From the UHGV virus genome UHGV-0130101: a DNA stretch of 17,225 nucleotides; one strand, given 5' to 3'. Each line of letters opens with the position of its first letter. Position 1 is the first letter of the stretch. Origin of the DNA: a virus. Positions 9,001 to 12,000 of this stretch are shown here, one piece after another. The position numbers were made by a program.

Positions 9001-12000
9001 CACAGGTCGCAAACTTCCTTGCTACCAAATAACCCGCGATGGCTTTGCGTTTCTTGCTATGGGTTTCACGGGTAAACGTGCTGCCCAGTTCAAAGAGGCA
9101 TACATCAATGCCTTTAACCAGATGGAGAAACAGCTTTCAAAGCCCTCTGTACCGAGCGACGTTGCACATAACGCCAGCGTTCTCTATTCCTACATTTCAT
9201 CAATTCATCAGGTCTGGTTGCAGCAGCTTTATCCCATGCTGGAAAAAGCTGAATCACCGCTGGCTGTAAGTCTGTATGACCGAATTAACGATGCGGCATT
9301 TCTTGCCCGTCTTATTCATTCGTCGCTGAACTCTTCAGAGGTAAGGGGGCGCAAATGATCCGGAATATTTTCAAACGGTTTACCAATCAGACTTTCCGTT
9401 GTCCTCGTCCGGGTCAGTGGTACACCACACCTGCAGGGCATGTTCTACGTGTTAGCCTGGTGGACCGTGAATGTCAGAAGGTGATTTGTGAACCGCTGGG
9501 CCGTAATTACCGCATCAGTATGCCGCTTATAGCCTTTCGCTCCGGAAAAAACATGAAGCATCTCGGAGGTGCTGCATGAGTATGGAGCTGATGGTTAAAG
9601 CGATGAAAATTCGAGTGGGAAATCCATTGCGAAAACTGGTTCTGATTAAGCTGGCTGATAATGCCAGCGATCAGGGTGAGTGCTGGCCCAGCTATCAGCA
9701 TATCGCTGATCAGTGCGAGATTAGCAAACGTTCTGTGATGAATCATATTGCGGCCCTCTGTGAGTCCGGGCTGGTAAAAAAAGTCACCCGGAAAGGTGAA
9801 AAAGGTAACTCAAGTAATATCTATCTCCTTCATCTGGATGGTGCAGGAGATTCACTAGGGGGTAGTGCAAATAATTCACTATCTGGTGCAGCAAATTCAC
9901 CAGGTAGTGCAGGAGTTGCACCAGGGGGTAGTGCAGGAGATTCACCCAGAACCAGTCACTCTTTTGAACCAGTCAAAGAACCAGTCAATGAACCAATAGC
10001 TGTTGGTGAATCTGCTGATGAGTCTGTGCGAGTTCGTTCAAACCGACCGGAATACTCTCCGGAGTTTGAGCAGGCATGGCTGGCATATCCCAAACGTGCT
10101 GGTGGCAATTCAAAATCTGCAGCCTTCAAAGCCTGGAAAGCCCGTTTGAATGAGGGGGTAAACCCCGAAACCATGCTGGAAGGTGTGAAACGCTACGCGG
10201 GCTGGGTATCTGCGATGGGTAACAGCGGCACACAATTTGTGAAACAGGCTGTCACGTTCTTTGGTCCGGATCGTCATTTCGAAGAATCCTGGGAAGTTCC
10301 TGCGGTATCTGCAGCCAGACGCGAGGACCCGTACTTCAAAGCCAGTTACGACAACGTGGACTACAGCCAGATCCCGGCAGGATTCAGGGGGTGATCATGA
10401 GTCTTTTGAATGAAGTTCAGAAATTCATTGAAGCCCATCCGGGGTGTACTTCCGGAGACATTGCGGATGCTTTTGCAGGTTACTCACGACAGCGCGTTCT
10501 GCAGTCAGCAAGCAAGTTACGTCAGAGTGGGCGTGTGGCTCACCGTTGTGAAGGAGATACACGCAGACATTTCCCGCGCCTGACTGAAAGAGCGCAGGAG
10601 CCGGAACCACAACCAGTTCGTGAAACCAGACCTGTGCGCAATTTCTATGTCGGCACTAACGATCCTCGGGTGATTTTGTGCCTGACCCGCCAGGCTGAAG
10701 AGCTGGAGTCCAGGGGTTTATACCGTCGTGCTGCAACGGTGTGGATGGCGGCATTCCGAGAAAGCCACTCCCAGCCAGAACGAAACAATTTTCTGGCGCG
10801 TCGTGAGCAGTGCTTACGGAAAAGCAGCAAGCGAGCTGTATCGGGTGATGAGTGGTATCTGTCAGGGAATTACGTGGGGGCTTAATGAGTAATAAATATT
10901 GCCAGGAGCTGGTGGAACTGCGGAACAAACCAGCCCATGAACTGAAGGAAGTGGGTGATCAGTGGTGCACGCCGGACAACATTTTCTGGGGAATTAACAC
11001 CCTGTTTGGCCCGTTTGTTCTGGATCTGTTCACTGACGGTGATAACGCCAAATGTGCCGCGTATTACACGGCGGAAGACAACGCGCTGGCGCATGACTGG
11101 TCAGAACGCCTTGCGGGGCTTAAAGGTGCTGCCTTTGGTAATCCTCCATACAGCCGCGCCAGTCAGCATGAGGGGCAATACATCACCGGCATGCGTTACA
11201 TCATGAAACATGCCAGTGCCATGCGTGATAAGGGCGGGCGCTATGTTTTCCTGATCAAAGCTGCCACCAGCGAAGTGTGGTGGCCGGAAGATGCAGATCA
11301 TATTGCTTTTATTCGCGGGCGTATTGGTTTTGAACTGCCTGTCTGGTTTATCCCGAAAGACGAGAAGCAGGTACCGACAGGAGCTTTTTTCGCTGGTGCT
11401 ATTGCTGTTTTTGACAAGACCTGGAAGGGACCGGCAATCAGCTACATCGGGCGCGATGAACTTGAGGCATGTGGTGAGGCGTTTCTGGCGCAGGTTCGCC
11501 AGCAGGCGGAAAAACTGGTCAGGGAGATGGCGGCATGACGACGTTAACTCAATGCCAGCAGCAGGTGCTGGATATGCTGATTTCTTATCAGAAAGAACGT
11601 GGCTTCCCGCCAACCAATCAGGAGGTGGCAACCATGCTGGGATACCGTTCAGTGAATGCAGCGGTGGAGCATCTTCGCGCACTGGAGAAAAAAGGCGTCA
11701 TCACGATAAAGCGTGGCGTGGCCCGGGGGATAACGCTTCATACCGCGGTGAAGGACGACGACAGCGAGGCGGTCGGGATTATCCGCGCACTGCTTGCCGG
11801 GGAGGAAAACGCAAGGCTGCGTGCAACCCACTGGTTACATGAAAGGGACCTGAAAGTATGAAGCTGATCCTGCCTTTTCCGCCCAGCGTGAACACGTACT
11901 GGCGACACCCCAACAAAGGGGCGTTTGCTGGTAAGAGCCTGATAAGCTCGGCGGGGCGAAAATTCCAGAGCGCGGCGTGCGCAGCAATAGTTGAGCAGTT

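Follow-up and report, generated by a model that had tools for sequence, protein, structure and literature searches.

How does a lambdoid phage that carries a replication initiator gene, and no gene for a helicase loader, open its origin and obtain a helicase? The question is raised by a 17,225-nt stretch of the virus genome UHGV-0130101 (hereafter, the window), in which the gene for a 272-amino-acid (aa) initiator is followed directly by a PerC-like gene. Among lambdoid phages, 34 of 314 have only a homologue of O, and according to PMC12315714 their replication "is not yet understood"; PMC8951638 likewise describes the replication of Eru-type Stx phages as not understood. Our analysis indicates that positions 9839–9999, inside the linker-coding part of the initiator gene, are quite probably the replication origin of this lambdoid prophage, and that they comprise two parts: a phased array of putative initiator-binding sites (iterons) and, directly beside the last of them, a conserved DNA element.

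The array consists of five 19-bp imperfect palindromes of the form T[A/G]GTGCA-N5-T[T/G]CAC[C/T]A (9839–9947, Table 1), each made of a 15-nt core with two flanking bases on either side and readable as a 7-N5-7 inverted repeat (e.g., TAGTGCA-GGAGA-TTCACTA) in which 4–6 of the 7 outer positions are complementary. An initial annotation of the window had reported five iterons of about 20 bp within the initiator gene, and these could be read directly; their separation, given there as 18–24 bp, is instead 21–24 bp from start to start (24, 21, 21, and 24 bp), leaving 2–5 bp between successive 19-mers. With up to three mismatches allowed, the core occurs six times in the window against 0.47 expected, a count reached in none of 200 shuffled sequences, and four of the six copies lie inside the array; the copy at 9865 has four mismatches and was located by register only. 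The linker peptide encoded here is GAGDSLGGSANNSLSGAANSPGSAGVAPGGSAGDSP RTSHSFEPVKEPVNEP, and this translation agrees with the Gly/Ser/Ala-rich and EPV-repeat linker described earlier.

Iteron-like sequences also occur singly outside the array. One such site, GTGAAGGAGATACAC (10548–10562, in the PerC-like gene), has two mismatches and is present in phage mEp460 and absent from ST64B, and another, GTGCAGGAACTTAAC (8356–8370), has three mismatches and is without the right half-site; both may be chance matches or distal regulatory sites. An inverted partial iteron at 10004–10017 was rejected as a chance match: it comprises the right half-site only, needs a Glu codon private to the window (relatives have Ala), and is not kept in ST64B despite the same iterons there.

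We compared the locus with nine phage loci and 80 loci from one-genome-per-species bacterial assemblies (GTDB), the latter having initiator N-terminal domains (N-domains) 68–86% identical to the query. Applying a 15-mer family finder that required a run of at least three copies at 18–27 bp spacing, we found a phased array in the linker-coding region of 82 of 88 relatives (nt ~265–380 of the gene), while the same criterion found none in the N-domain coding region (0/88), in the 260 nt downstream (0/86), or in the 260 nt upstream (0/88). These relatives span Enterobacterales, Pseudomonas, Aeromonas, Shewanella, Marinomonas, Vibrionaceae, Pasteurellaceae, and Cardiobacteriaceae. Arrays begin at about nt 265 of the gene and hold 3–7 copies, most commonly 5, at spacings of 21, 22, 23, or 24 bp only (mean 22.4, about two helical turns), with 24 bp between the starts of the final two copies in 73 of 75 related loci. 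Dyad symmetry is a property of each repeat, with 5.1 of 7 outer positions complementary compared to 1.9 in shuffled sequences.

Copy number varies among close relatives. A scan of viral contigs with the N-domain returned only 100%-identical copies, and we used it for copy-number variation and the GTDB scan for diversity: the usual form among 80 viral contigs with an identical N-domain has five iterons and three copies of a 10-mer, GAACCAGTCA, that follows them. Near-identical initiators of E. coli and Shigella (242–302 aa) differ by insertions and deletions of whole repeats, with 1–9 iteron units and 2–4 EPV units.

These patterns bear on the possibility that the repeats are a mere low-complexity linker of Gly/Ser/Ala and Glu-Pro-Val units, generated by tandem duplication and with no function as DNA, a reading that we consider very improbable. 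Taken by itself, the window lends it some colour, as its spacings are all multiples of three, the peptide is visibly repetitive and predicted to be disordered, and linker length varies freely among near-identical proteins. Among relatives, however, 45 of 75 loci include 22- or 23-bp spacings, so that a single iteron motif is translated in two or more frames within the locus, and this shows selection on the DNA, not the peptide. Every unit is, moreover, a dyad, and the peptides of different iteron classes are wholly different while the architecture is kept.

The half-sites also track the recognition helix of the initiator's N-domain, again contrary to a role as peptide only. Helices of the type S[KR]RSV[MI]NH pair with the half-site T[AG]GTG[CA]A, SRSTVKSHIRAL with TGGGGCA, DRSTVRKHIKQL with TGTAGGC, and SKSAV[KR]xHI with T[GA]TGCCA. 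MRH helices pair with GTGAC in an Erwinia lineage whose helices otherwise conform to S[KR]RSV[MI]NH and, in a second instance, in Vibrio phage D67, and Aliivibrio loci, also MRH, have a GTGACA-type 15-mer core; the independent pairing of MRH with GTGAC argues for a real recognition code. Across loci, half-site distance correlated with helix distance over aa 48–63 (Mantel r = 0.60, p = 2e-4; partial correlation 0.60), and there was no correlation with distance over aa 1–44 (r = 0.07, p = 0.17). The iteron sequence therefore appears specific to the DNA-binding domain of its cognate initiator, with a predicted code in which, for example, a change of residue 56 from N to R is paired with a change from GTGCA to GTGAC. 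Dyad units whose half-sites follow the recognition helix show the DNA to be the object of selection, and the initial suggestion that these are origin iterons inside an initiator gene, as in lambda, is strengthened by this co-variation together with the frame analysis, the copy-number variation, and the presence of arrays in the linker-coding region and not in control regions.

The fifth iteron is followed directly by the only three exact copies of GAACCAGTCA in the window (9949, 9966, and 9978) and by a degenerate copy, GAACCAATAG, at 9990. The three and a half copies of a second repeat family noted previously are accordingly present, though they are not private to this phage and form part of a very widely conserved DNA element. 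Three copies in 17 kb are not in themselves significant, being reached in 19 of 200 shuffled sequences, and we judged the repeats real because they cluster within 39 bp and are conserved in relatives. In 78 of 88 loci the array is followed immediately by an element of ~36 bp, CAGAACCAGTCACTCTTTTGAACCAGTCAATGAACC, usually with three or fewer mismatches and irrespective of iteron class, type of C-terminal domain, or partner gene downstream. When viral contigs were scanned with the pattern, 120 further copies were recovered, all beside the last iteron and from the same initiator family: 112 lie in open reading frames (ORFs) with the initiator N-domain signature, and the remaining 8, disrupted or cut by contig ends, have the same iterons upstream.

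Although the element is read in one frame in 76 of 78 loci, encoding PRTSHSFEPVNEP (the two exceptions are frameshifted pseudogenes), its pattern of change is not that of a conserved peptide. Over its first 12 codons, 75 unique loci show 6 synonymous and 180 nonsynonymous differences from the consensus, compared to 1805 synonymous and 773 nonsynonymous differences in the N-domain. The nonsynonymous changes are often radical (F to S, P, or L; T to I; H to N; P to S), and at degenerate codons that keep their amino acid the third base is identical in 94–100% of loci in the element versus 48% in the N-domain. Since silent sites are fixed while residues change, the constraint falls on the DNA of the element. 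With this excess of nonsynonymous change in its EPV part, the reading of the whole segment as a peptide linker is already contradicted by both the frame and the codon analyses. In loci from Pseudomonas bharatica and Erwinia tracheiphila (L109 and L140), the initiator is frameshifted within the array, leaving ORFs of 133 and 118 aa, and the iterons and the element are intact.

What the element does is less clear than that it is constrained. Averaged over 76 loci, it contains the least stable 20-bp duplex within ±400 bp (z = +1.5), and its top strand is only 14% G. No promoter-like site was found in the element or elsewhere in 9300–10500, and the nearest DnaA box lies ~1.7 kb away, with the number of such boxes at chance level. 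The position beside the iterons, the internal repeats, and the strand asymmetry resemble those of the 13-mers in plasmid unwinding elements, and for these reasons we propose, as a possibility that falls somewhat short of an even chance, that this is an unwinding or helicase-entry region. Iteron plasmids (those of RK2 TrfA and F RepE, with repeated 13-mers) offer a close parallel, as they too combine a winged-helix initiator with phased iterons and adjoining short repeats, and the GAACCAGTCA repeats match the 13-mers in position, repetition, and strand asymmetry. Plasmid Rep proteins bind one strand of the unwinding-element repeats in a sequence-specific manner, which makes the precise sequence of these repeats essential (PMC4081077), and single-stranded DNA binding by the phage initiator would be by analogy with this. 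Unlike the plasmid systems, the phage locus has no Rep_3/WH1-WH2 architecture, and its putative origin lies inside a gene.

Alternatively, the 36-bp element could be a recombination linker, a conserved site for a host protein, or the coding sequence of a short motif (PRTSHSFEPVNEP) for docking a host factor; we think it unlikely that it serves one of these roles in place of unwinding. In keeping with a recombination linker, the boundary at which C-terminal domains are exchanged falls immediately after the element; the shared frame would suit a peptide motif, and the element is not strongly A+T-rich. Recombination alone, however, fails to explain the identity of the element between Pseudomonas and Proteus/Xenorhabdus, where the flanks have diverged, and a peptide motif fits poorly with fixed silent sites, changes that are nearly all nonsynonymous and radical, and a segment predicted to be disordered. 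Neither a promoter-like site nor a nearby DnaA box is on hand, though the element may still be a host-factor site.

Judged from these alignments, the N-domain, iterons, and element are inherited as one cassette, to which exchangeable C-terminal domains are joined at the boundary just described. More tentatively, and with less confidence than we attach to unwinding as such, the element may be a new sequence-specific unwinding or helicase-entry site recognized by the conserved part of the initiator family, probably as single-stranded DNA; the initiator would then be a one-protein module that loads host DnaB without a phage loader, and the N-domain, iterons, and element a portable 'origin cassette', free to recombine with a variety of C-terminal domains that recruit the helicase. 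In the literature open to searching we found neither these iterons nor the conserved element described, though the repeats may be mentioned in older work published by subscription, the SfV genome paper among it.

The layout of the locus is strongly reminiscent of the lambda origin. In lambda, the origin occupies the middle of O and contains four iterons, each a 19-bp imperfect inverted repeat; Stx phages have six, and the additional iterons lengthen O by extra residues (PMC7466680). The same paper describes synonymous recoding of the iterons in phage P27. The present locus shares the mid-gene position, the 4–6 direct repeats that are each a 19-bp imperfect inverted repeat, the predicted opening region on one side, and a number of iterons that varies between phages and adds linker residues. 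The N-terminal domain of lambda O binds DNA and its C-terminal domain recruits the helicase complex, a division of labour that we predict here as well. There are also differences. The N-domain here is HTH_36/DnaD_N-like, not Phage_rep_O; where lambda has an A+T-rich tract, the flank is an element of GAACCAGTCA repeats that has the lowest local duplex stability but a GC content of ~0.4, and that is conserved in sequence and not in composition; there is no P gene; and the C-terminal domain shows no sequence kinship to any Pfam family. The locus is probably a functional counterpart of the lambda origin yet lies outside the lambda O/P family, and the earlier label 'O-like' holds by analogy only, as the gene belongs to an HTH_36/DnaD_N-type winged-helix family.

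The array could be bound by the initiator and act mainly as an operator or titration site (in autoregulation, as a transcription roadblock, or in copy control and incompatibility) with the true origin elsewhere, an arrangement we consider improbable. Plasmid iterons are known to serve titration and handcuffing as well, the array sits inside a transcribed gene, and the single iteron-like sites at 10548 and 8356 would suit such a role. On the other hand, the iteron motif clusters nowhere in the complete 44.5-kb mEp460 genome but in the array, and the array is joined rigidly, at fixed spacing, to a conserved and easily melted element for which a pure operator would have no need. The match to the lambda layout also favors an origin.

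The initiator itself is best described as a DnaD-like two-domain protein that would bind its origin, with its putative sites and the adjoining element in its own linker-coding DNA. It matches Pfam HTH_36 (PF13730; 44.1 bits, gathering cutoff 25) and PHROG 270 'replication initiation protein' (E = 1e-88), and aa 17–85 match DnaD_N below the cutoff (24.3 bits); it has no match to Phage_rep_O (PF04492) or to Rep_3, having a single winged helix and not a WH1-WH2 tandem. In an AlphaFold2 model built with a 48-sequence alignment, two confidently predicted domains flank a segment of low predicted local distance difference test (pLDDT) scores (aa 91–155) that is exactly the part encoded by the repeat DNA. 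In a Foldseek search, the N-domain matched winged-helix proteins, among them 2v79 (the N-terminal domain of DnaD) and an Orc1/Cdc6 winged helix, with E-values of 8e-3 or weaker throughout.

Less can be said of the C-terminal domain by homology. Searches of PDB sequences with the whole initiator and a profile of this domain gave nothing useful, and neither Pfam nor NCBIfam yielded a family match, also by profile, although the initiator's C-terminal third matches the PHROGs groups 'DnaD-like helicase loader' and 'primosomal'. The domain is widespread (4561 related representatives of 50%-identity clusters) and is found joined to HTH_36, Phage_rep_O, and DUF1376 N-termini. Its predicted fold gave weak BFVD matches to phage replisome-organiser, DnaD, and DUF1376 proteins (E 6e-4 to 4e-3). 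The protein differs from DnaD and phage replisome organisers (e.g., Bacillus phage DnaD-like proteins) in the absence of a Pfam DnaB_2 match to this domain, in the weakness of the structural scores, in the Gram-negative hosts, and in its predicted sequence-specific recognition of an origin.

Gene content in relatives suggests what this domain may engage. Where initiators carry it, genes for an IstB/DnaC-like ATPase and a DnaB-like helicase follow in 6 of 8 diverse loci (AsXd-1, Stx2_14040, and four GTDB loci). The same N-domain family with other C-termini is followed by lambda-P, a DnaB-like gene alone, or primase-helicases, and RothC, with the same N-domain type, has lambda-P. We infer that the C-terminal domain engages a pair made up of a DnaC-type loader and a DnaB-type helicase. 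No helicase, loader, or primase gene was found among the ORFs of the window, where the PerC-like gene occupies the position held by helicase-loader or helicase genes in relatives, or in the complete genome of the viable phage mEp460; the observation that no loader follows, made at the outset for this locus, thus extends to a complete genome, in agreement with the O-only phages of PMC12315714. As this phage lineage lacks both genes while the domain is linked to DnaC-like and DnaB-like genes in relatives, it probably uses the host's DnaC and DnaB, and the previous proposal of recruitment via the initiator C-terminus or host factors fits this linkage.

From the repeats, their conservation, the co-variation with the recognition helix, the constraint on DNA, and the gene content, we infer that the initiator binds the array, that the element unwinds, and that host DnaC and DnaB are used, as follows. 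Dimers of the N-terminal winged helix would bind the five palindromes; with a phasing of about two turns, this would place the bound proteins on a common face of the helix, as in the lambda O-some. The duplex would open, and the helicase enter, at the adjoining element (the GAACCAGTCA repeats), which the initiator may keep single-stranded by binding it, as plasmid Rep proteins do with unwinding-element repeats. The helical C-terminal domain, which resembles that of DnaD and phage replisome organisers, would recruit a DnaC-type loader with a DnaB-type helicase, and host DnaC and DnaB would serve, the phage encoding neither.

Several observations weigh against this interpretation. The element is only moderately A+T-rich (GC ~0.40–0.42), unlike the A+T-rich tract of lambda, and its low duplex stability is shared by descent, such that the 76 loci do not count as independent observations. 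Relatedness is not fully taken out by the Mantel test. Variants with one or two iterons, or without the conserved element, exist, and many of the E. coli copies sit in prophages that are possibly defective. Finally, none of the O-only phages has been studied, according to PMC12315714, and PMC8951638 states that nothing is known of Eru replication proteins.

The surrounding genes form an early-right operon of the lambdoid type, in the order cI-like, cro, CII-like, Rha/Ash, 74-aa ORF, initiator, PerC-like, Dam methylase, LexA-DBD (DNA-binding domain) protein, and RusA (Table 1). The initiator module is found at 97–98% DNA identity in SfV, mEp460, cdtI, 1720a-02, Stx2a_WGPS2, and many Stx2c phages. 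Over the initiator region the window is 98% identical to Stx2a_WGPS2, the Eru6 type phage, and in this it is like the Eru6 Stx-phage replication region of PMC8951638. More distant initiator proteins occur in ST64B (88% identity), Aeromonas phage AsXd-1 (69%), and Vibrio phage D67 (48%), and many phages have only the N-terminal or only the C-terminal half in common. The gene has a match in 2718 of 5426 complete E. coli genomes, near full length in 897. A single E. coli genome can hold up to five copies, and the gene beside the initiator carries the annotation yfdN, as it does in prophage CPS-53 of K-12.

Table 1 Features of the putative origin, the initiator, and neighboring genes in the window.
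Feature	Position	Strand	Sequence, match, or remark
Iteron 1	9839–9857		TGGTGCAGGAGATTCACTA; core GTGCAGGAGATTCAC at 9841
Iteron 2	9863–9881		TAGTGCAAATAATTCACTA; core GTGCAAATAATTCAC at 9865; central 5 bp divergent, half-sites kept
Iteron 3	9884–9902		TGGTGCAGCAAATTCACCA; core GTGCAGCAAATTCAC at 9886
Iteron 4	9905–9923		TAGTGCAGGAGTTGCACCA; core GTGCAGGAGTTGCAC at 9907
Iteron 5	9929–9947		TAGTGCAGGAGATTCACCC; core GTGCAGGAGATTCAC at 9931; abuts conserved element
Conserved element	9947–9999		CAGAACCAGTCACTCTTTTGAACCAGTCA(AAGAACCAGTCA)ATGAACC; directly after iteron 5
Initiator gene, 272 aa	9576–10394	+	Pfam HTH_36; PHROG 270
Winged-helix domain coding region, putative origin-binding	9576–9839	+	aa 1–88; pLDDT ~90 (AlphaFold2)
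Recognition helix	aa 51–64 of initiator		SKRSVMNHIAALCE
Disordered linker	aa 91–155 (approximate bounds)		pLDDT <50 (AlphaFold2)
Helical C-terminal domain coding region	10041–10295	+	aa 156–240; pLDDT >90 in full-length model
cI-like repressor gene	6650–7324	-	Family searches of window ORFs
cro	7391–7615		Family searches of window ORFs
CII-like gene	7647–8210		Family searches of window ORFs
Rha/Ash gene (383-aa ORF)	8207–9358		Pfam Phage_ASH match, aa 117–213
74-aa ORF	9355–9579	+	PHROG 1153; 4-bp overlap with both neighbors
PerC-like gene	10391–10885	+	Pfam PerC, E = 1e-9; context only, outside the origin

The 74-aa ORF was considered as a replication partner of the initiator and rejected, since it co-occurs with the Rha/Ash gene (in ST64B and Stx2_14040) and not generally with the initiator N- or C-terminal domain; its homologues in those two phages occupy the same place, each beside a Rha-family gene. 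Inside the Rha/Ash ORF, under the Phage_ASH match, Rfam models identified isrK (67.9 bits, 8567–8643, + strand) and C4 antisense RNA (83.6 bits, 8668–8755, + strand). This region resembles a c4/antirepressor control unit of the P1 immI type. The long Rha/Ash ORF may be over-called, and what separates cII from the initiator is probably an antirepressor module rather than a gene with a part in replication. A YafO-family type II toxin gene (606–1040, + strand; Pfam E = 2e-21) lies close to the window's left end, preceded on its 5' side by a 179-aa ORF (50–589) without a family match.

The 17.2 kb contain 16 exact Chi sites (GCTGGTGG), where 0.57 would be expected; 12 are on the + strand. The sites span 1388–17167, and one lies inside the initiator gene (10098–10105). 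The window also carries yfbR-like and DUF2303/yfdQ-like genes and neighboring early-left genes, and no recombination module was recognizable in it. The Chi richness, the early-left genes, and the absent Rec module match the LLS-type lambdoid phages described in PMC12315714, whose O-only members likewise have one O-analogue, no helicase or loader, and yfbR/yfdQ-like early-left genes. Unlike our analysis, the accessible parts of PMC12315714 and PMC8951638 deal with gene content only, and describe no iterons or conserved element.

The initiator is the replication module of Eru6-type Stx2-converting phages and of SfV, ST64B, and cdtI, and in Stx phages it is phage replication that drives toxin gene dosage. 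For O-only and Eru-type replication, our analysis provides handles in the form of exact putative binding sites, a predicted specificity code, a conserved element, and a candidate helicase-recruiting domain. The locus also illustrates clearly the assembly of phage replication modules: the N-domain, iterons, and element move as a unit, while the C-terminal domain is swapped.

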